Assembly: GCF_011045215.1 (NCBI RefSeq)
Contig: NZ_CP049201.1
DNA length: 64,000 nucleotides
Origin: Escherichia coli
GTDB taxonomy: Bacteria > Pseudomonadota > Gammaproteobacteria > Enterobacterales > Enterobacteriaceae
Reading direction: 5' to 3' (one strand)
In this document: one piece after another, positions 561 through 11,383 of the stretch
Position numbering within the stretch: the first letter of the stretch is position 1
How the letters are laid out: each line of letters opens with the position of its first letter
Position numbers and translations under genes: made by a program
The notes under the pieces: generated by a model
What the model saw: the letters and a program-made list of their open reading frames with translations, nothing else
What the model was told of the DNA's origin: nothing
The model's database searches: none

Positions 561-1091
561 ATGAAGAAAGATTCATATCCTTATTTGATTTGCATGACTG
601 TTTCAGTGCTAGGGATTATTTTCCTCTTTTACTGGTGGAGGGCAGATATCTACAGGATTACATATCTTAATTCGCGTATATCCAATTATTACATCTTGTG
701 TAGTATGGGTATGTCCTTTTTCTTCTCCTTGTTTCTGGTGAAGAGGGGGGTAGTGAAGCAAAGTGGCTGGAAAGGACTGTCGGAATACCTGAAGGTTTAT
801 GCTGGCTCTTGCATTCTTACAGGGATATTCCTGATTATTCCTCTTATGATGGTGACTTATTTTTTACCAGGAGTAACATCATCATATGTTGCACCGTATG
901 AGTATACATCTGGTAGTTCAAGAAGCTGTTCCGGAGCGTTTGTTGATGATCCCGAACTGCATAAAAATATTCTTATTTGCTATCCGTATGGTAACTATGA
1001 ATATGACAATATTATCTATGTTGAAAAGAAAACTAATGCATTGGGCGTTGTTGTGACGTATGCACAGACTGCACGAGACGATGCTGAATAA
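561..1091 (+). CDS. Hypothetical polytopic membrane protein (about 3 predicted TM helices, soluble C-terminal ~80 aa); AT-rich cargo gene
   Basis: 176-aa ORF with three long hydrophobic segments; strongly AT-rich relative to flanking DNA; no family recognised. Confidence 0.5.
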   Translation: MKKDSYPYLICMTVSVLGIIFLFYWWRADIYRITYLNSRISNYYILCSMGMSFFFSLFLVKRGVVKQSGWKGLSEYLKVYAGSCILTGIFLIIPLMMVTYFLPGVTSSYVAPYEYTSGSSRSCSGAFVDDPELHKNILICYPYGNYEYDNIIYVEKKTNALGVVVTYAQTARDDAE

Positions 1092-1627: not shown

Positions 1628-1939
1628 TTATTCAGGAAATAACGCCCGGATATTTCCGGCCATCTGACTGGTTATCTGTGCGGTTGATACTGGCTGTGAT
1701 GCGGGGCGTTCTGTCCTGGTTTGTGTCACTGATAACGCTTCATCATCAGCCCATGCAGCTAGTCGGTAAGCCTCTGCCGGATTCATTTTCAGAAGTGCCA
1801 GCCCGGCCAGAAAAGCCACACGTTGGCCGCTTTTGCGGGCTTCTGGTGTAAGGCTGTCCAGCCAGGCGCATGCTTCGCCTTCGTTCTTGACGGCGGCGGG
1901 CTTCAGATAGAAACTTATCCGTCTGGTTGGTGTCGTCAT
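1628..1939 (-). CDS. parR: ParR (StbB)-like centromere-binding protein
   Basis: 103 aa from Met at 1939; resembles plasmid R1 ParR (from memory); AAGGAG RBS; starts 4 nt after parM stop. Confidence 0.55.
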   Translation of the reverse strand: MTTPTRRISFYLKPAAVKNEGEACAWLDSLTPEARKSGQRVAFLAGLALLKMNPAEAYRLAAWADDEALSVTQTRTERPASQPVSTAQITSQMAGNIRALFPE

Positions 1940-1943
1940 TGGT

Positions 1944-2903
1944 TTACTCCTTGTCCATTGCGTACAGCCCATTAACCAGAGCAAACTGTGGCACCCCGTC
2001 CGCGATGAAAGTCGCATTAACTCCGCAGGCTTCGCGGATAGCGGGTGCCACAATCTCCGCCCCGCCACCGACAACCATCACCCGCCCGTAACCCGAAAAA
2101 ACCGCCAGCGCGCGGATCACGCGTTGTTTCAGTGTTTCTTCCTTTTCACGAATAACCGCCATCAGGCTGGCGTAATGCGCGTCATTGTGGATGTGTTGGC
2201 GCAACCAGGCTTCATCATGGCGATGTTCGATAATGGTATTGGCGATGTGGTGACTGGTACGCATACCGTTAGCGGCCATCACCGACAGCACGGCACCGGC
2301 CATCAGGGAGACGCCTACGTGTGGATCGCAAAACACCTGGCTGATACCTGCCAGTTGCCCCTGAACCTTTGCCACATCCAGCGTGGTTCCGCCTAAATCC
2401 ACAATCAGCAGGGATTCAAACGGACTCATGTCAGCCAGTGCTTTAAAGCCAGCCGGAATGGATTCAGGCATAACCCGCACGTTACGGATAGTGAATGCTT
2501 CGCCGTTCTGGTACTCCACCGGGCGCATAACGTTCGCTTTTTTGCGGTTGATGTTGGCCATGTCCGGCTGTGCGTTTGTGTCGAAATACTCGCTCAGTGG
2601 CAGGGTGACAACCACATCCACCTCCTGTGGCGTGATGCCTGATTTGACCAGCGTGTGATGAATGGCGATTACATTCACATCGCTGTACTGGTATTGCGTG
2701 TCGGTCGTCTGGACAAAGCGATCGCTGACCGGATCAAAACCATAGCGCACGCCATCAAGCATGTAGTTCGCGGGCTGCATGCCACCGAACGGCGCAGATC
2801 ATTCCGACTTGAAGCTGTTCGGGCTGATGGCGTTGCGGCGTTCGCCATTCTCAGTCCATGCCAGCTTGATGTTGGTGGAGCCGTCGTCGATACAAATTTT
2901 CAT
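1944..2903 (-). pseudogene. parM: ParM (StbA)-like actin-type partition ATPase, interrupted by in-frame TGA at 2799-2801
   Basis: N-terminus MKICIDDGSTNIKLAW...NSFKSE then TGA, then in-frame continuation SAPFGGMQPANYML...; strong similarity to R1 ParM (from memory), where this position is Trp. Confidence 0.75.
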
Positions 2904-2932
2904 GTCGCTTTTCCTTATGTTGATTAATTAAT

Positions 2933-3050
2933 CGTTTACGGGATTCTGAAATCCCGTTTTTGCCTGTTTTGTGTGCGCTTCATATATCGCGGCGCGTTTT
3001 TTGCTCATTTACGGGATTTGTGAATCCCGTTTCTGTCTGTTTTTTGTTTC
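2933..3050. repeat. Two copies (2933-2975, 3006-3050) of a ~45-bp repeat, each with palindrome ACGGGATT-N4-AATCCCGT; candidate parC-like centromere/operator
   Basis: Direct repeat with internal inverted repeat, immediately upstream of the parM start. Confidence 0.6.
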
Positions 3051-4533
3051 CACTGGTCAGGCCACCCCGCAGCAGGTCTGCTTTGCGGCGGGCACGTTCA
3101 GTGGTTTCACTGATTCTCTGTGCGTGCTCTGCGTCGCGGATGGCGCGCAGCATGTCAGAAAGCACGGTAACGGGGGTTTTCATGGTGTTCTGGTCCTGCT
3201 GAAGTGTGGATGCCAGACGTGCGGCGGCTTCGAGGTCTGATGCCCCCAGCTGTTCCAGATAGCTGGCGACCGGGTTATGGCGGATCTCCGTGCTGCTTAC
3301 GCCGTGATTACGGCTCAGGCGCTGCCAGAGCTGCGTGATTCGGCTGTCCGGGCGGGTATCCGGTTTGCGTACAATTTCAAATCCCTGCGGTGCAATGATG
3401 CTGCCGTCAACGTACAGGCTGCCGCCCCGTAACAGGTGCTGCATCTGCTGTTCACCGATATGCATGCCGAGAGATTCGGCAGATTCCCGCCATTCTTTAG
3501 CGAGTAATTCGTGGTTATCAGGCAAAGGCCGCTGCTGTTTGCGGCTCTGTGTCCAGCTCTGCATTTCATCACTGCTGTTTTTTGCCTGTTTGTCACGCAG
3601 CGAACGCATCAGCGCCCGGCGTTCGTGCCGTTTCAGTGAGCGCACCCATTCATCCACATCAACGCCGTCAGGAAGCTGCGGCCACGGTGCTGGCCGTTCT
3701 TCCGGCTGTTCTGTCCCGTTGTTGTCCGTTTCCTGTACACGGGGACAGTTATTGCCACGAGTCCAAGGGGCGGCAGGGCCGCTCTGAAGGTCAAAACCAT
3801 TTTCGCGGGAGCTGTCTTCCGCTTCCGGTTTGCGTCTTACCAGCTTCCAGTTATCCGGATGCGTGCATACGCGGGAAGACTCCCCGATGAGCGGCGACCA
3901 GATCCCGTAAATCTGTACACTCTGCTCACCGTAATCGTTCAGTTCATCTGCGAGGTCGTAGGCGGTGCGAATCAGGTAGTCTTTGCGTGGAACAAGCACG
4001 CCACCCTGTTTTTCAATGTAGGTGGCAAAACACCCGGCATCAGCGGCAGCGAGTACCGCATCCATTGCGTCATCCTTCAGCCGTTGCGGGCCTTCCGGGT
4101 TGCGTGCCATCTGGCTGGCAAGGCGGCGCAGTTCACGCCACACCTGACGGGAGGGGATACCAAAGAACTGGAACTGGCGGACCCGGTGAAGGCGCGCCCA
4201 GCCGATGGCGCGTTCCACGCTCTCGGCCATTGATTTTCCGGTTTCGTGGTCAACGCGTGGCTTGCCCGTTTTCGGGTCGATGCCATCCACGGCGCGGCTG
4301 TCCAGGTTCTTTCCGATGTAGGTGGCGATGTAGCTGGTTGGCGTGCCTTTTGAGCCGTCGACGTACTCCGCCTTAAAACGCGGAGTTATGTCATCGCCCA
4401 GCTCGTGGCGGTCTTCCTGAATGGCAATATCGCAGACGTGGGACACGATGGTTTCAATCTCGTCCGGATGTGCAAAGACCATCATATGCCAGTGCACAGT
4501 GCCGTCATGGTGAGGCTCCAGCGGTGTATTCAC
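2980..4533 (-). pseudogene. HUH-motif rolling-circle replication initiator, P2 gpA-like; apparently 5'-truncated
   Basis: 517-aa ORF begins at GTG right at the motif HHDGTVHWHMMVFAHPDE, preceded by in-frame TGA; upstream 300 bp is coding-like in two other frames. Confidence 0.5.
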
Positions 4534-4686
4534 TCAGCGAGGCACACCCGCCAGCAGTGTGATGCGCCAGCATTGCCGCAAATACGGAGGCCGGGGAGTC
4601 GTAATACGCCAGCAGTGATTCGCCATGCGGTGTCAGGCAGCGCAACGCCAGCCCGTGTGGTGTTAAGTCCACGCGGTAGCAGTCGT

Positions 4687-4836
4687 CTACTGTGAAATAA
4701 AGGGTGAGCGTTGTTCTTTAGCTGCCATTTCATCAATGACGGCTCGCTCTTCGAGGGACAGCCGAAGTGCCAGTCTTGGACCTGTGGCGGTGTTACGCGG
4801 AATGCGTGATCTGGTATCGTGAAGAACTTGTTTCAT
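4687..4836 (-). CDS. Small 49-aa ORF divergent from the XRE gene (possible Cox/excisionase-like or RHH regulator)
   Basis: ATG at 4836 to TAG at 4687; below the 60-aa ORF-track cutoff; position equivalent to cox in a P2-type early region. Confidence 0.3.
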   Translation of the reverse strand: MKQVLHDTRSRIPRNTATGPRLALRLSLEERAVIDEMAAKEQRSPFISQ

Positions 4837-4878
4837 AGTGGTATATTGTGATCATCTAATAGCTCATGAAATCATTTT

Positions 4879-4896
4879 GGTATCAAAAAAGATACC
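4879..4896. promoter_or_regulatory. Palindrome GGTATC-N6-GATACC in the divergent promoter region; candidate operator
   Basis: 6-bp perfect inverted arms with A6 spacer between divergent starts at 4836 and 4912. Confidence 0.35.
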
Positions 4897-4911
4897 TGTC
4901 AAGGTTTTTGT

Positions 4912-5316
4912 ATGAAAAATGATATTGGTCAGCGGTTGCGTGAGGAAAGGGAAAGATTGGGGCTTAGTCAAGTTGCTATGAGCGACATTGGTGGAGTCAA
5001 AAAGCTAACTCAGCTTAGATATGAGAAAGGAGATAGCTTTCCTGATGCTGCGTATTTGGCAGCGCTGTCTCGTTTTGGCCTTGATGTTCAGTATGTTGTG
5101 TTGGGAATTCACTCACCTGAAACTTATAACGATGATGAGCAGGAGTTGATTACTCGCTTTCGAGCAGCTTCGTTAGATGTAAAAAACGCGGTGATCGGGG
5201 CTTTAAAAGGTGCGGGCAGTGAAAAGGAAACTCAGCCATCAGGGCGTGAGTTAAATATTTCTGGTGGTAATAACCGTATCGCTGGTCGTGACTATAACGA
5301 AACTAAGGGTAGGTGA
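4912..5316 (+). CDS. XRE-family helix-turn-helix protein (repressor-like) with C-terminal tail carrying an NNRIAGRDYNE motif
   Basis: N-terminal HTH signature (IGQRLREERERLGLSQVAMSDIGGVKKLTQLRYEKG); low GC. Confidence 0.7.
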   Translation: MKNDIGQRLREERERLGLSQVAMSDIGGVKKLTQLRYEKGDSFPDAAYLAALSRFGLDVQYVVLGIHSPETYNDDEQELITRFRAASLDVKNAVIGALKGAGSEKETQPSGRELNISGGNNRIAGRDYNETKGR

Positions 5317-6364: not shown

Positions 6365-7366
6365 ATGTCGGTTCGTAAAACTCCATCAGGTAAATGGCTT
6401 TGCGAATGTTATCCCTACGGAGCATCGGGAAAACGCATTCGTAAACAGTTTGCGACAAAAAGTGAGGCGCTCTCTTATGAGCGCCGTTTAATGAATAGTA
6501 GAGTTGGAGACGAGTTTCAAGATGGTTCTGGTCCTCGTCTTTCTGAGTTGATTGCTCGTTGGTTTGAGATGTACGGAAAAACCTTGTCCTCTGGTGCAGA
6601 GCGCAAAGTCAAACTTGAGGCGATTTGTTCTAGGCTGGGAGATCCATTTGCTTCTCAGTTTGACAAAAATATGTTTGCTACTTATCGGGAAAGAAGGCTA
6701 TCAGGAGAATGGAATCCCAAGGGGAAGAAAAAACTTAGTGAAGCAACCGTTAATCGCGAGCAGTCATATCTACATGCTGTTTTTGCCGAACTGAAGCGCC
6801 TTGGGGAGTGGTCTGGTGAAAACCCCCTGACTGGAATTCGCAAGTTTCGTGAGGAAGAAAAGGAGCTGGCGTTTCTGTATGTAGATGAGATTGAACGCCT
6901 TTTGATTGCGTGTGATGATTCACGGAATAAAGATTTGGGGGTTGTTGTCCGTATTGGGCTTGCGACTGGTGCTCGGTGGAGTGAAGCAGAAGGATTAAAG
7001 CAATCTCAAGTACTGCCCGGTCGAATCACATTTGTTAAAACTAAAGGAAAGAAGAACCGCACTGTACCGATTTCACCTCAATTGCAGGCTATGCTTCCTA
7101 AAAAACGAGGAGCGCTATTTTCACCATGTTATGAGGCTTTTGACGCTGCAATTAAGAGAGCGAAGATAGAGCTCCCTGATGGGCAATTAACTCATGTGCT
7201 ACGTCACACGTTTGCTAGTCATTTTATGATGCGGGGCGGAAATATTCTTGTGTTGCAAAAAATACTGGGGCATAGCGATATAAAAATGACTATGCGTTAT
7301 GCGCATTTTGCTCCGGGTCATTTAGAGGCTGCTGTTGAATTAAACCCTTTTGACAATAGAGGGTAA
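6365..7366 (+). CDS. int: Tyrosine recombinase, P2-type phage integrase
   Basis: 333 aa; motifs LATGARWSEA, ITFVKTKGKKNRTVPIS, HVLRHTFASHFMMRGGNILVLQKILGH, MRYAHF closely match P2 Int (from memory). Confidence 0.9.
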   Translation: MSVRKTPSGKWLCECYPYGASGKRIRKQFATKSEALSYERRLMNSRVGDEFQDGSGPRLSELIARWFEMYGKTLSSGAERKVKLEAICSRLGDPFASQFDKNMFATYRERRLSGEWNPKGKKKLSEATVNREQSYLHAVFAELKRLGEWSGENPLTGIRKFREEEKELAFLYVDEIERLLIACDDSRNKDLGVVVRIGLATGARWSEAEGLKQSQVLPGRITFVKTKGKKNRTVPISPQLQAMLPKKRGALFSPCYEAFDAAIKRAKIELPDGQLTHVLRHTFASHFMMRGGNILVLQKILGHSDIKMTMRYAHFAPGHLEAAVELNPFDNRG

Positions 7367-7472
7367 AAAGTGGCGATAAAAAGTGACAATAGATTCAAAT
7401 GGCGTCGTATAGAGCTATTTGCAAAGTTAATAAAATCATAAGGTTATGATTTATAAATGGTGGTTGATAGTT

Positions 7473-7527
7473 TTTAAAATCCCTCGGCGTTCGCGCTGTG
7501 CGGGTTCAAGTCCCGCTCCGGGTACCA
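7473..7527 (+). other. leuZ: 3' ~55 nt of tRNA-Leu (leuZ) ending in CCA: attachment-site core; not an intact tRNA
   Basis: TTTAAAATCCCTCGGCGTTCGCGCTGTGCGGGTTCAAGTCCCGCTCCGGGTACCA matches the leuZ 3' part; upstream sequence only partly tRNA-like, no acceptor-stem 5' strand. Confidence 0.8.
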
Positions 7528-7570
7528 TGGGAAAGATAAGAATAAAATCAAAGCAATAAGCAGTGTCGTG

Positions 7571-7596
7571 AAACCACCTTCGGGTGGTTTTTTTGT
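7571..7596 (+). terminator. Intrinsic terminator of the leuZ tRNA operon
   Basis: AAACCACC-TTCG-GGTGGTTT stem followed by T-run. Confidence 0.8.
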
Positions 7597-7722
7597 GCCT
7601 GCAACTTGTCGTTACACCCTCCTTAATTTTTAATCACCGGCAAAGCCACTCAAAAAGTATCTCTGATACGGACCGGCATGTAAGATAGGTGCTGGCGAGT
7701 TGAGATCCACAAGGAAAAGCGT

Positions 7723-8388
7723 ATGAAAACGGGACCGTTAAACGAAAGTGAGTTGGAATGGCTGGACGATATTCTGACCAAATACAACACTGACCACGCC
7801 ATCCTTGATGTGGCGGAGCTGGACGGTTTATTGACGGCAGTGTTGAGTTCTCCGCAAGAGATTGAACCGGCACAGTGGCTGGTTGCCGTGTGGGGTGGGG
7901 CTGACTATGTGCCGCGCTGGGCGTCAGAGAAAGAGATGACGCGCTTTATGAACCTGGCTTTTCAACATATGGCCGATACCGCAGAGCGTCTGAACGAATT
8001 CCCGGAGCAGTTTGAGCCGTTATTCGGCTTGCGAGAAGTTGATGGCAGCGAGCTGACGATTGTTGAGGAGTGGTGCTTTGGCTATATGCGGGGCGTGGCA
8101 CTTTCTGACTGGTCAACATTGCCCGATTCGTTAAAACCAGCGCTGGAGGCGATAGCGCTGCACGGTACTGAGGAAAACTTCGAGCGGGTAGAGAAGATGT
8201 CGCCAGAAGCGTTTGAAGAGAGCGTAGATGCCATTCGACTGGCGGCGCTTGATTTACATGCATACTGGATGGCGCATCCGCAGGAAAAAGCTGTTCAGCA
8301 ACCGATCAAAGCAGAAGAGAAACCGGGGCGTAACGATCCTTGTCCGTGCGGCAGTGGTAAGAAATTTAAGCAGTGCTGCCTGCATTAA
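7723..8388 (+). CDS. yecA: UPF0149 protein YecA with C-terminal SEC-C zinc motif
   Basis: 221 aa; C-terminal [13 protein letters not shown]; K-12 synteny. Confidence 0.9.
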
Positions 8389-8449
8389 GAAGTCAAATTG
8401 GGTGTCAGCGTTAATTCTGGCACCCAATAAGGAATTTGAGGCTATCTAA

Positions 8450-9661
8450 TCACCCCACTTCTGGTAACAACCCTGCCGCAATCAAAAATTGCACGCCAAT
8501 CACAGCAATACCACAGAGAAACACCACCACCAGCGCCGGACGACCACCTTTGACCCGGTAACCCGCTTGAGGATTGTGCCTTCTGCTTTGCCAGGTCAAC
8601 AGCGAAGGGATAATCAATGCCAGTACCGCCAGCGCCACACCGGCGTAACCCAGCGCCATCACAAATCCTCGTGGATAAAACAGTGCAAACGCCAACGGCG
8701 GCAGAAAGGTAATTGCTCCAGTTTGCAATCGTCCACCAACGGTATTTGAACGCTGAAACAAATCAGCCAGATAATCAAATAAGCCTAACGCAACGCCGAG
8801 AAATGACGTGGCGAGGGCTAAATCAGCAAATAAATGCACTGCCAGCTCAACATGCGGAGAGGCCACCATTTCGCGTAACGCCTGTAACAGCCCGTTTAAT
8901 CCGGCATGATTAGCCAGCAATCCCATAAAGGTTGTTGAATCAATGCTGCCAAGCGTCGCCACCTGCCAGAAAATATATGCCACCAGGGGGATCGCACTAC
9001 CGATTATAAACACCCAGCGTAGCTTACGAATGTTGCCATCCATATAGCTGACAATACTCGGCACGCTACCGTGAAAACCAAACGACGTAAAAATCACCGG
9101 GATTGCAGACAGTGCCAGCCCCTGTTGCAACGGCAGGGTTAAAAGATTCACTTTGTGAATATGCGGTAGCAGCAATACCAACATCACCACCAAAAAAATA
9201 ATTTTGGCGCTGAACAGAAAACGGTTAAATAAATCGACCAGCGATGTTCCAACACAAACCACGCCACCGGCAACAAAAGTGAACAACAGCACGCCAGCGG
9301 TTGCCGACATTGAAATACCTGTCCAGTCGCTGATGCTGGAGGCCAACAATTCACCGGCACCGCTGATGTATGCCGCAGTCAGAGCATACATTAAGAACAT
9401 CATACTGAAGCCCGTCAGCCATTGACCGTAGCGTCCCAGATAGCGTTTTGCCAGCGTGCCCAGACCGGTATCTGCCGGAACATGCTGGTACACCTCCAGC
9501 AGTAATAGCGCCGTGTAGCACATCAACGCCCAAAGCCCAATCAACAAGATTAACGTAACGCTAAAACCAACACCGGCCGCAGCCAGCGGCATTGCCAGCA
9601 TGCCTGCGCCAATTGTGGTTCCCGCCACGATAAAAACACTTCCCAGGGTTCTGTTTTTCAC
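8450..9661 (-). CDS. tyrP: Tyrosine-specific transport protein
   Basis: 403 aa polytopic permease; synteny. Confidence 0.95.
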
Positions 9662-9752
9662 GCTTTCTTCTGTCCTGACGATCTTTATGAGTGATATCTG
9701 CGGCGCAGGTTAAGGCATAACGGCTGCTTCGTCAAACCGACGTTACATATGG

Positions 9753-9770
9753 TGTAAATATAAATGTACA
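9753..9770. promoter_or_regulatory. TyrR box upstream of tyrP (TGTAAA-N6-TGTACA)
   Basis: One mismatch to TGTAAA-N6-TTTACA consensus, in tyrP promoter region. Confidence 0.5.
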
Positions 9771-9852
9771 ATAAAAAGCATTCAGTCCTGCGCTGGCGCA
9801 AAGTCTTCATAAGCGGCAATCGCTACGCTAGGCTTTTTTTTGAGGAGGAACG

Positions 9853-10092
9853 ATGGACTCTATTCACGGTCATGAAGTGTTAAATATGATGATTGAATCA
9901 GGCGAGCAATATACGCATGCCAGTCTGGAAGCTGCGATTAAAGCGCGTTTTGGTGAACAGGCACGTTTTCACACTTGCTCGGCAGAAGGGATGACAGCGG
10001 GAGAGCTGGTAGCGTTTCTGGCAGCAAAAGGCAAATTGATAGCTTCAGAAGAAGGTTTTTCGACCGATCAGAGTAAGATTTGCCGTCACTGA
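9853..10092 (+). CDS. yecH: Small protein YecH
   Basis: 79 aa; synteny. Confidence 0.85.
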   Translation: MDSIHGHEVLNMMIESGEQYTHASLEAAIKARFGEQARFHTCSAEGMTAGELVAFLAAKGKLIASEEGFSTDQSKICRH

Positions 10093-10129
10093 TTTGAAAC
10101 GGCGGCAGAAAACCTGCCGCCTGAGAGCA

Positions 10130-10627
10130 TTAGTTTTGTGTGTCGAGGGTAGAGAGTTCTTTGTCGATAAAATACAGACCTTCGCCGCTTTTGCCTGCCA
10201 GGCTTAATTTATCAATAATCGATTTGAACAGTTTCTCTTCTTCATGCTGCTCAGAAACATACCATTGCAGGAAATTAAATGTTGGGTAGTCCTGATTGGT
10301 CATTGCAGCATGAGCCAGTTCGTTAATTTTCTGGGTGATTAATTGTTCGTGTTTATAGGTTTCCTGGAATAATTCATCAAGTGAGGAATATTCAGCAAAC
10401 GGAGATTCAACGGTATTAATACGCGGTAAATTGCCGGTATCAGTCAGGTAATCAAACAGACGCTGCATATGCGTCATCTCTTCCTGGGCGTGACGGCGCA
10501 GGAACGCGGCAGCACCTTCGAAGGTATGATAGCTGCACCAGGCGCTCATTTGCTGATAAAGCAGTGAAGAGTACAGTTCCAGGTTCATCTGCTCATTAAG
10601 TTTTTCAATCATTTCTGGTTTCAGCAT
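10130..10627 (-). CDS. ftnA: Ferritin
   Basis: 165 aa from [13 protein letters not shown]; ORF-track start is 5 codons upstream. Confidence 0.95.
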
Positions 10628-10797: not shown

Positions 10798-11121
10798 TTA
10801 GAGAAAGACAGGGAAGGCGGAATGATGGCACTGATATGACAAAGTGAATTCCGTATTCAAACATAAGGAACCCGCAAAAAGGCTACAGTTGCCTACTGGC
10901 TGACCAAAGGGGATCGCGTGGGTATAGCCTTCCTGCTGGCATGCGCGATCGGCGATCCCGCGACTGACATAACGATCGGTATGGGCATGCTGCAAAAAAG
11001 CCTGGTCATAAACCAACCGTACAATACCTGTTGCCGCGTCAACTTCGCTCACATGGGCCTGGCGAGTAACTGTACACCCCGCCAGCGTTATTAATGAAAG
11101 AGTCAGAATCAGAAGTCTCAT
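10798..11121 (-). CDS. yecR: Lipoprotein YecR
   Basis: 107 aa; signal peptide with lipobox LAGC. Confidence 0.85.
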   Translation of the reverse strand: MRLLILTLSLITLAGCTVTRQAHVSEVDAATGIVRLVYDQAFLQHAHTDRYVSRGIADRACQQEGYTHAIPFGQPVGNCSLFAGSLCLNTEFTLSYQCHHSAFPVFL

Positions 11122-11285
11122 GGTCCAGCCAGAAGAGTAAGAGAAAGCACTATTTTACGCGTTACAGCGCTGCGACAATGGCCGGAAAAGACGCCTGGCA
11201 GGCGCTATTTCTTGCCATCTGTAGGTGTCAGAAATAGGGGGGCTGTTTTTGGATTATCATTTTTATAACATTAAAGGGGTATTTA

Positions 11286-11301
11286 TGTGATTTGTATCAC
11301 A
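11286..11301. promoter_or_regulatory. CRP binding site (TGTGA-N6-TCACA) upstream of azuC
   Basis: Perfect match to CRP half-sites. Confidence 0.6.
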
Positions 11302-11383
11302 TAAAGATTGATTTTTGTGATGGTTGTCATATTATAAGCGCAAAGACAATAACACCTGTATAACAAATGGTCGGAGTGCCGCG

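Follow-up and report, generated by a model that had tools for sequence, protein, structure and literature searches.

A candidate two-palindrome centromere in the ParMR cassette of P88-like prophages of Escherichia coli

Background

ParMRC is the textbook actin-like machine of plasmid segregation, and on plasmid pB171 it works with two centromeres of many short direct repeats. In this report, we examine a cassette of the same kind carried by a P2-like prophage of E. coli, on a stretch of 64,000 nucleotides of contig NZ_CP049201.1 (RefSeq assembly GCF_011045215.1), hereafter called the window, and in particular a pair of direct repeats situated just upstream of its parM gene. To our knowledge, the cis site of the P2-like prophage ParMR cassette has never been defined, and our literature search found no study of the P88-like or CP-933T ParMR system or of its centromere. 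Our main finding is that the two 43-bp repeats probably form the parC-type centromere of this type II (ParM/ParR) partition cassette.

Among the described systems, parC of plasmid R1 is 159 bp long and comprises two repeat clusters upstream of parM; the 39-bp spacer between them holds the par promoter, which is repressed by ParR (PMC2241845). In the SXT/R391 elements, srpC contains four direct and inverted repeats that are bound in pairs, single half-sites not being stably bound (PMC4489591). A report on AlpAC/alpS, from the Corynebacterium glutamicum prophage CGP3, describes a prophage-encoded actin-like protein and a site-specific DNA-binding adaptor, and implicates them in transport and replication of phage DNA, not in the inheritance of plasmids (PMC5539076).

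With parC of R1 and the stb locus of R100, the locus analyzed here has in common the order sites, parM, parR, and the families to which both proteins belong (ParM, 1mwk; ParR, PF10784). As in R1, two blocks and a spacer are found within about 150 bp upstream of parM. However, R1 has two sets of five direct 11-bp iterons, whereas the window has two single pairs of inverted half-sites with degenerate flanks, and a repeat search of the window returned no tandem 11-bp array and hence no iterons of the R1 type. The spacer, 30 bp long instead of 39, holds the stop codon of the upstream gpA gene in place of a promoter, none being predicted there, so that an R1-type operator is not supported. Phasing of A-tracts is significant in R1 and not in the window; the distal block, unlike its R1 counterpart, overlaps an upstream open reading frame (ORF), that of gpA; and R1 is a plasmid replicon, whereas the window carries an integrating P2-like phage. 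By comparison with pB171 ParR (2JD3), the window ParR is expected to fold as a ribbon-helix-helix dimer that reads DNA with its N-terminal strand, although the numerous short direct repeats of the pB171 centromeres have as their counterpart here just two inverted half-site pairs.

The srpMRC system resembles the present one in being a type II partition system on a normally integrated element, with few repeats that act in pairs there and would do so here. Nevertheless, SrpR has no recognizable similarity to ParR, whereas the window ParR clearly belongs to PF10784, SXT/R391 elements are conjugative and not phages, and the repeat sequences are unrelated. AlpAC offers a functional analogy only: its proteins and sites are unrelated to those of the window, and its host is Gram-positive.

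Results

Two repeats with palindromic cores between gpA and parM

The locus is a defective P88-like prophage (Xuanwuvirus, Peduoviridae, P2-family), in which the genes neighboring the repeats all lie on the minus strand, in the order gpA, parM, parR. The repeat search defined a single two-copy family of direct repeats at 2932-2974 and 3005-3047, 43 nt long, 81% identical and 73 bp apart from start to start. Inside each copy is a perfect 20-nt palindrome of 8-4-8 organization, ACGGGATT-N4-AATCCCGT, at 2938-2957 and 3011-3030. Searched for with up to three mismatches, this pattern occurs at just these two places in the 64-kb window, where 0.24 are expected, and at just the two homologous places in the whole P88 genome (35.8 kb); neither sequence contains further copies of the site beyond chance. 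A preliminary description of this DNA had proposed two direct repeats with palindromic cores at this position. They are real, each with a perfect palindrome, and the end positions and 73-bp spacing given there hold; the strings quoted for them begin at 2935 and 3008, and not at 2933 and 3006.

Copy 1, the proximal block (2932-2974, minus strand; sense strand CACAAAACAGGCAAAAACGGGATTTCAGAATCCCGTAAACGA), lies within the 76-bp gpA/parM intergenic region. Its palindrome begins 34 nt upstream of the parM ATG and contains putative inverted ParR half-sites with cores CGGGA and TCCCG, 12 bp apart from centre to centre, the C of CGGG being 53 nt from the ATG. Copy 2, the distal block (3005-3047, minus strand), is inside the last ~24 codons of the gpA ORF. 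The spacer between the blocks (2975-3004, minus strand) holds the gpA stop codon at 2982-2980. In each block, the A-rich flank resembles degenerate iterons, of the AAATAG type found in a metagenomic locus, L223, described below.

Downstream of copy 1, the parM leader (2904-2931, minus strand) contains a Shine-Dalgarno sequence, AAGGAA (2916-2911), and a conserved 9-nt box, ATTAATCAA (2928-2920), between it and the proximal palindrome. No base of this box differs among P88-like, Hafnia and Plesiomonas loci, where adjacent bases vary, and it is not a recognizable -10 element.

The two-site layout recurs beside diverged parM genes

The position of the blocks (2932-3047) immediately upstream of the parM-parR operon, whose parM ATG starts at 2903, is that expected of parC, and all six plasmid loci used as controls have their sites there as well. 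The sites are repeated, with two blocks of two inverted half-sites each, and they accompany a ribbon-helix-helix ParR and an actin-like ParM, with the caveat that codon W35 of the window parM is a stop.

ParM homologues at 54-63% identity again occupy this place in P2-like prophages, flanked by gpA and the portal gene, in Hafnia, Plesiomonas, Serratia and metagenomic contigs. The preliminary description had suggested looking for the same architecture upstream of parM homologues, and this search succeeded: in the Hafnia and Plesiomonas prophages (ParM 62% and 63% identical, respectively), two YGGG-N10-CCCR sites are kept in otherwise diverged DNA. They are spaced by 73 bp in the window and in Hafnia, and by 72 bp in Plesiomonas; from the proximal site to the parM ATG the distance is 53, 56 and 60 nt, respectively. 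In a five-way alignment, invariant columns cluster on GGGA, CCC and an ATTAAT box, and the remainder has diverged. In P88 and the window, the relaxed motif is encountered roughly every 14 kb. When each 230-nt region was subjected to 20,000 dinucleotide shuffles, at most 5e-5 of the shuffled sequences had two or more sites, and none had a pair separated by 70-75 bp. Neither Hafnia nor Plesiomonas retains the inner arms (ATT/AAT), and the predicted RNA folds fall to -3.2 and -6.5 kcal/mol, respectively, versus -10 to -11 kcal/mol in the window.

Related cassettes carry other arrangements of the same core. In L223, a gpA-linked locus from metagenome SRR28800612, Tandem Repeats Finder detected upstream of parM, at 172-272 of that locus, an array of period 11 and 9.2 copies with the unit ATGGGAACGAA. 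It appears to be a canonical iteron centromere with the same GGGA core, apparently undescribed. Seven Serratia-type loci have invariant blocks, AAAAYGGGAAC-GAWATAGAAAAA and an inverted partner, around a variable spacer; these blocks read AAAAYGGGAACGAWATAGAAAAA. Both L223 and the Serratia-type cassettes (L099, L104, L142, L143, L221 and L222) resemble the window in the position of the sites between gpA and parM, in the ParR family, in the (R/K)(I/V)SFYL strand and in the YGGGA(A/T) core. They differ in arrangement, with a direct 11-bp array in L223, one long-range inverted pair of two-iteron blocks in the Serratia type, and two compact palindromes 73 bp apart in the window; both arrangements are putative centromeres. 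A position weight matrix built from ten L223 iterons gave eight sense-strand hits above the 99th percentile in 181 nt, versus 1.8 expected, a count inflated by A-rich composition.

In each of the six plasmid controls, which include an R1-type locus, the iterons upstream of parM are 10-11 bp long and form two clusters. In R1, their core AAACCCA (the complement of TGGGTTT) resembles the half-site ATCCCG (CGGGAT). Sites rich in ATAGAAAAAT pair with ParRs that start with NRK(C/I)SFY, and CGGGA(T/C) sites with TRR(I/V)SFYL; this covariation of the site core with the ParR N-terminal arm across lineages is anecdotal. On the side of the Serratia-type prophages, iterons ATAGAAAAAT (L099, L142, L143, L221 and L222) resemble those of pOXA-48-like and IncF plasmids (AGAAAAATAC; L088, IncL/M, and L089, IncF), and the ParRs of these prophages and of the L088 and L089 plasmids share the NRK(C/I)SFY N-terminus. 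Because both iterons and ParR N-termini are alike, centromere cross-talk or incompatibility between prophages and plasmids is a possibility.

Scans of IMG/VR with the Hafnia ParM returned no locus, and with the Plesiomonas ParM a single one. Enterobacterial ParM loci, one of them 99% identical to P88 ParM, were also found in metagenome-assembled genomes labelled Collinsella, Lachnospiraceae and Clostridiales (L102, L108, L115, L118 and L122); these labels most likely reflect binning contamination.

The repeats travel with the parMR cassette

Two E. coli prophages, N58 (L094) and EC130 (L095), have gpA genes 94-97% identical to that of the window and no parMR. Their homology to the window is lost at ~3050-3095, and both sites are absent. 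We place the upstream boundary of the cassette approximately at 3050..3095 from these alignments and from the megablast matches of H23 and H24, which end at ~3080-3095. The repeats are evidently part of the parMR cassette and not of gpA.

The end of gpA differs with the presence of the cassette. In N58, from which parMR is absent, the protein ends in ...DKGNSEKKK. Among parMR-bearing loci, it ends in ...SGNKKQTETGFTNPVNEQKTRRDI in the window; it stops after ...SENKK in L073, leaving both copies intergenic; and in L085, where a 73-bp deletion fuses the two copies, it ends in ...KTGFKNPVTD. The ...GNSEKKK end of the parMR-less homologues aligns with ...SGNKKQ of the window gpA. Since gpA tails differ according to the presence or absence of parMR, comparison of the loci supports the view that the last ~18 gpA codons (~3036-2983) are read-through into the cassette. 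The suspicion of the preliminary description that the ORF tail was not genuine coding sequence was thus well founded: homologues without parMR end at ...GNSEKKK, and L073, with parMR, stops before copy 2. Moreover, since L073 keeps copy 2 all the same, conservation of this copy is, in this comparison, not a coding constraint.

The slot that receives the cassette in P88-like, P2-family prophages, with gene A on one side and the portal gene on the other, is shared with anti-phage systems. Directly downstream of gpA, it is a cargo hot spot: in place of parMR, N58 carries IetA/IetS (L094:1-2262) and EC130 a PD-Lambda-5-like pair of methylase and ATPase (L095:1-2212). Elsewhere, parMR adjoins a PDC-S20-like KAP NTPase (L221:4911-6257) or, in Serratia, HicAB (L099:5450-6084).

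Variation among close relatives

Diversity at shorter range was assessed in 83 close relatives taken from IMG/VR and phage records, counts for copy 2 being over 82. Both copies are almost always present, and copy 1 was seen in 83/83. Nevertheless, the palindrome is perfect in only 40 of the 83 for copy 1 and 35 of the 82 for copy 2, and both are perfect in 19/82. Changes in the palindrome are all single-sided, none of the 27 distinct variants being compensatory, and the central GG/CC pairs are the only invariant ones. Among 73 distinct sequences, per-site diversity is 0.03-0.075 in the arms and 0.10-0.25 in the loops. The preliminary description had put the emphasis on the palindromic cores; as the defining feature of the repeats these are not supported, as both cores are perfect in those 19 relatives only and Hafnia and Plesiomonas retain just the outer GGG/CCC. 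The conserved unit is better described as a pair of inverted half-sites than as a hairpin.

Copies within one lineage are more alike than copies across lineages, and loci L036 and L050 show parallel changes in both copies. This would correspond to concerted evolution of the two copies, which is typical of repeated binding sites.

The downstream genes of the P88-like prophages (L004, L006 and L008-L087) vary very unequally. ParM is 99-100% identical, and ParR falls into types that are only ~52% identical, which share the N-terminal arm and strand (MTTPTRRISFYLKP), part of the next helix, and the C-terminal tail (NIxAxFPE). At the DNA level, a recombination break is found ~18 codons into parR. 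ParR type and repeat haplotype are not associated; since the DNA-reading strand TRRISFYLKP is invariant, the comparison is uninformative on specificity.

Other explanations of the repeats

Four other explanations were considered, and are given in decreasing order of plausibility. The repeats could have no function and be what is left of a tandem duplication of 73 bp at the gpA end, their likeness being historical and not selected. Read in the +1 frame, copy 1 indeed encodes KQAKTGFQNPVND followed by a stop, which resembles KKQTETGFTNPVNEQ, the gpA tail that copy 2 encodes; in L085 the copies are fused into one; and the region is about as diverse as third codon positions. However, a neutral duplication would not keep the 72-73-bp period, the GGG-N10-CCC cores and the distance to the ATG in lineages whose ParM is 62-63% identical and whose flanks are unalignable. 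Moreover, gpA homologues without parMR have no tail, so that the tail derives from the cassette and not the cassette from gpA. We regard this explanation as improbable.

On the plus strand, a consensus scan classes both hairpins as terminator-like, with 8-bp stems, four G-C pairs and T-rich tails TTTTGCCTGT and TTCTGTCTGT. In this explanation, the repeats would be two intrinsic terminators in tandem, lying antisense to parM and gpA, that stop convergent late or cargo transcription before the replication gene. Each hairpin is worth about -10 kcal/mol, and the A-rich flank of the repeat would provide the U-tract; this combination of a G+C-rich hairpin and a U-tract is encountered in the window haplotype only. 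The plus-strand folds are ordinary compared to shuffles (z -1.4 and -1.5), and the stem is not conserved: copy 1 departs from the perfect palindrome in the other close relatives counted above, the plus-strand stem has two A-C mismatches in a frequent copy-1 variant, GCGGGATTTAAAAATCCTGT (13/83 loci), and in Hafnia and Plesiomonas the sites are kept with no stable hairpin and no T-tract. Furthermore, no plus-strand gene ends at the hairpins, the antisense open frame that ends 21 nt from the parM ATG not being conserved in Hafnia, Plesiomonas or Serratia, and the sites travel with parMR and not with convergent genes. With neither a conserved gene whose 3' end they would mark nor conserved stems, terminators appear rather less plausible still.

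On the opposite strand, the repeats might act as hairpins of the sense mRNA at the gpA/parM junction, either as processing or stability elements or by coupling or attenuating parM translation. Sense-strand folds do better than shuffles (z -2.5 and -3.2), the copies can also pair at long range (z -3.5), and the changes that are common in copy 1 (A1 to G, C18 to T) become G-U wobbles on this strand. Yet no compensatory double change exists among the 27 variants, copy-2 variants mostly break the hairpin (with a C-A mismatch at pair 7-14 in 4/12 variants), the GG/CC pairs alone are invariant, the inner stem is gone in Hafnia and Plesiomonas, and the direct or long-range inverted iterons of L223 and Serratia-type cassettes are unable to form the same hairpin. 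A search of Rfam matched no family, the sole match being a chance plant miRNA (E 0.96) outside the repeats. Overall, this explanation seems to us distinctly unlikely, and the lack of conservation of the hairpins argues against terminators and RNA hairpins alike. In the minimum-energy fold of the minus-strand RNA 2895-3075 (-42.7 kcal/mol, z -3.5), the two copies are paired with each other across ~70 nt; because both palindromes have identical arms, this is probably a trivial consequence of the repeats and not a selected structure.

Finally, the origin of P2-family phages is inside gene A and the distal copy is inside the gpA ORF, so the repeats might bind a protein other than ParR, as part of the gpA replication origin or as sites for a phage regulator (C, Cox or Ogr) or a host factor, but this is very improbable indeed: prophages with a 94-97% identical gpA and no parMR have neither site, the sites recur beside parM even where another ORF (Hafnia) or other genes (a methyltransferase in L221 and L222) separate parM from gpA, and the site core changes, anecdotally, with the ParR N-terminal arm across lineages.

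Genes around the repeats and state of the prophage

The parM gene (1944..2903, minus strand; ATG 2903-2901) encodes the actin-like partition ATPase and matches Pfam StbA_N (E 1e-82) and ParM_C (E 1e-68), as well as the R1 ParM structure, PDB 1mwk (E 9e-93). It is a pseudogene in the window: the codon for W35, a residue invariant in an alignment of eight ParM homologues, is TGA (2801-2799), and ORF finding therefore lists a 278-aa fragment only. In contrast, parR (1628..1939, minus strand) is intact and encodes a 103-aa ribbon-helix-helix adaptor of the StbB/ParR family, with N-terminal TRRISFYLKP and C-terminal tail NIRALFPE. It matches PF10784, the family of R1 and pB171 ParR, at E 1.6e-24, and R1 ParR with 34% identity over 56 aa (E 2e-8); a profile built from these ParRs matches pB171 ParR 2JD3 at E 4.7e-16. 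The best PDB match of the predicted ParR model is 2jd3_A (probability 0.98, TM 0.55/0.62), despite an identity to 2JD3 of just 18%.

Upstream, the gpA-like replication endonuclease is a 3' remnant (2980..4523, minus strand) that corresponds by blastn to ~aa 427-940 of the P88 protein and matches PF05840 at E 1e-128. P88 coordinates 7236-10186 and 10900-11383 are the only ones matched by the window in the blastn comparison, the first ~426 gpA residues and the early genes being gone. The early region, from cox to the 5' half of gpA, is missing between the gpA remnant and a C-repressor-like gene (4912-5316), leaving a gap at 4524-4911, and the prophage integrase (6365-7366) abuts a yecA-like gene (7723-8388). 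Because parM has a nonsense mutation and gpA is truncated, the parMR system of the window is a relic.

Convergent with parR, a 176-aa predicted membrane protein is encoded on the plus strand at 561-1091, within a segment (485-1575) that has no P88 match; it has no PADLOC hit. In phage Shae_phiSM, a convergent gene for a 'putative promembrane protein' is found just downstream of parR, at the position corresponding to window 561-1091; the likeness is positional only. PADLOC analysis of ParM, ParR and their neighbors gave no hits, its collection including no model of the first two.

Discussion

A candidate centromere and its limits

The assignment of the two repeats as a parC-type centromere, which we consider likely, is supported by comparison in three ways: the repeats belong to the parMR cassette, the two-site layout is found in three genera, and related cassettes have, at the position of the repeats, iteron arrays that share their GGGA core. 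For ParR binding and its stoichiometry, centromere activity and co-transcription, we infer the following scheme. Each block would consist of an inverted pair of half-sites (AAACGGGAT / ATCCCGTAAA, core YGGGA) and an A-rich flank, and since the blocks are 73 bp apart, or ~7 helical turns, all sites would be presented on the same face of the DNA. ParR dimers would bind the half-sites through the N-terminal strand, cooperatively, as a dimer of dimers on each block; the conserved C-terminal tail of ParR would capture the ends of ParM filaments, and the filaments would move the extrachromosomal phage genome. Transcripts of the early operon would probably read through gpA, whose ORF enters the distal block, into parMR; indeed, in view of the lack of a detectable promoter, transcription of parMR together with gpA is probable.

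Several observations weigh against this assignment. Four half-sites are few compared to the 10-35 iterons of R1/pB171-family centromeres, and on the L223 matrix they score in the top 0.13%, which is only moderate. A consensus scan of the minus strand between 1500 and 4480 found no sigma-70-like site, and inspection by eye found no TAnnnT/-35 pair in the 30-bp spacer or the leader. Because no promoter is predicted, the autoregulatory half of parC function is missing or undetected. The operator role put forward in the preliminary description is accordingly not supported, as the scan of the coding strand found no sigma-70-like promoter between or beside the repeats; a promoter that is weak or of a type other than sigma-70 may lie near them. 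Phasing of A-tracts with a 10-11.5-bp period is not significant in the window (p ~0.13), Hafnia or Plesiomonas, versus 0.018 for the R1 control. Nucleotide diversity (pi) of the 147-bp region is 0.053, versus 0.054 and 0.075 for third codon positions, a comparison that has no power at this depth; because diversity of the region is no lower than that of third codon positions, purifying selection is not demonstrable within the P88 clade. Finally, the repeats upstream of the ~52% identical ParR variants are identical, although these variants share an invariant N-terminal strand, TRRISFYLKP.

What a centromere would mean for these prophages

The cassette is common in the species: a 3.5-kb probe that covers parR, parM and the 3' portion of gpA left in the window has matches in 1,427 of 5,426 complete E. 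coli genomes, 690 of them with at least 80% coverage. If the repeats are a centromere, they would represent a new architectural variant of parC that is widespread in E. coli prophages.

A more speculative proposal, which we hold to be unlikely, is that the cassette with its compact two-palindrome centromere is an exchangeable accessory module of the anti-phage cargo hot spot of the P2 family, and not an inheritance device in the style of plasmids. If this were so, the centromere and ParR would serve either to position or separate phage genomes that replicate once the prophage is induced, a role proposed for AlpAC in CGP3, or to disturb partition in competing plasmids or phages with related sites. 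An arms race, and not drift, would then account for the fact that the middle of ParR is hypervariable when its DNA-reading arm is invariant and ParM is 99-100% conserved.

The interpretation of the repeats as a centromere also bears on annotation. It explains the variable gpA C-terminal tails within the clade and locates the boundary of the cassette, and the two plus-strand 'terminators' listed by consensus scans are probably protein-binding sites. Beyond annotation, a candidate centromere of 150 bp, with four half-sites and no embedded promoter, would be a minimal substrate with which to establish the smallest number of ParR dimers that suffices for capture of a ParM filament, and it raises the question of why an integrating phage needs a partition system.

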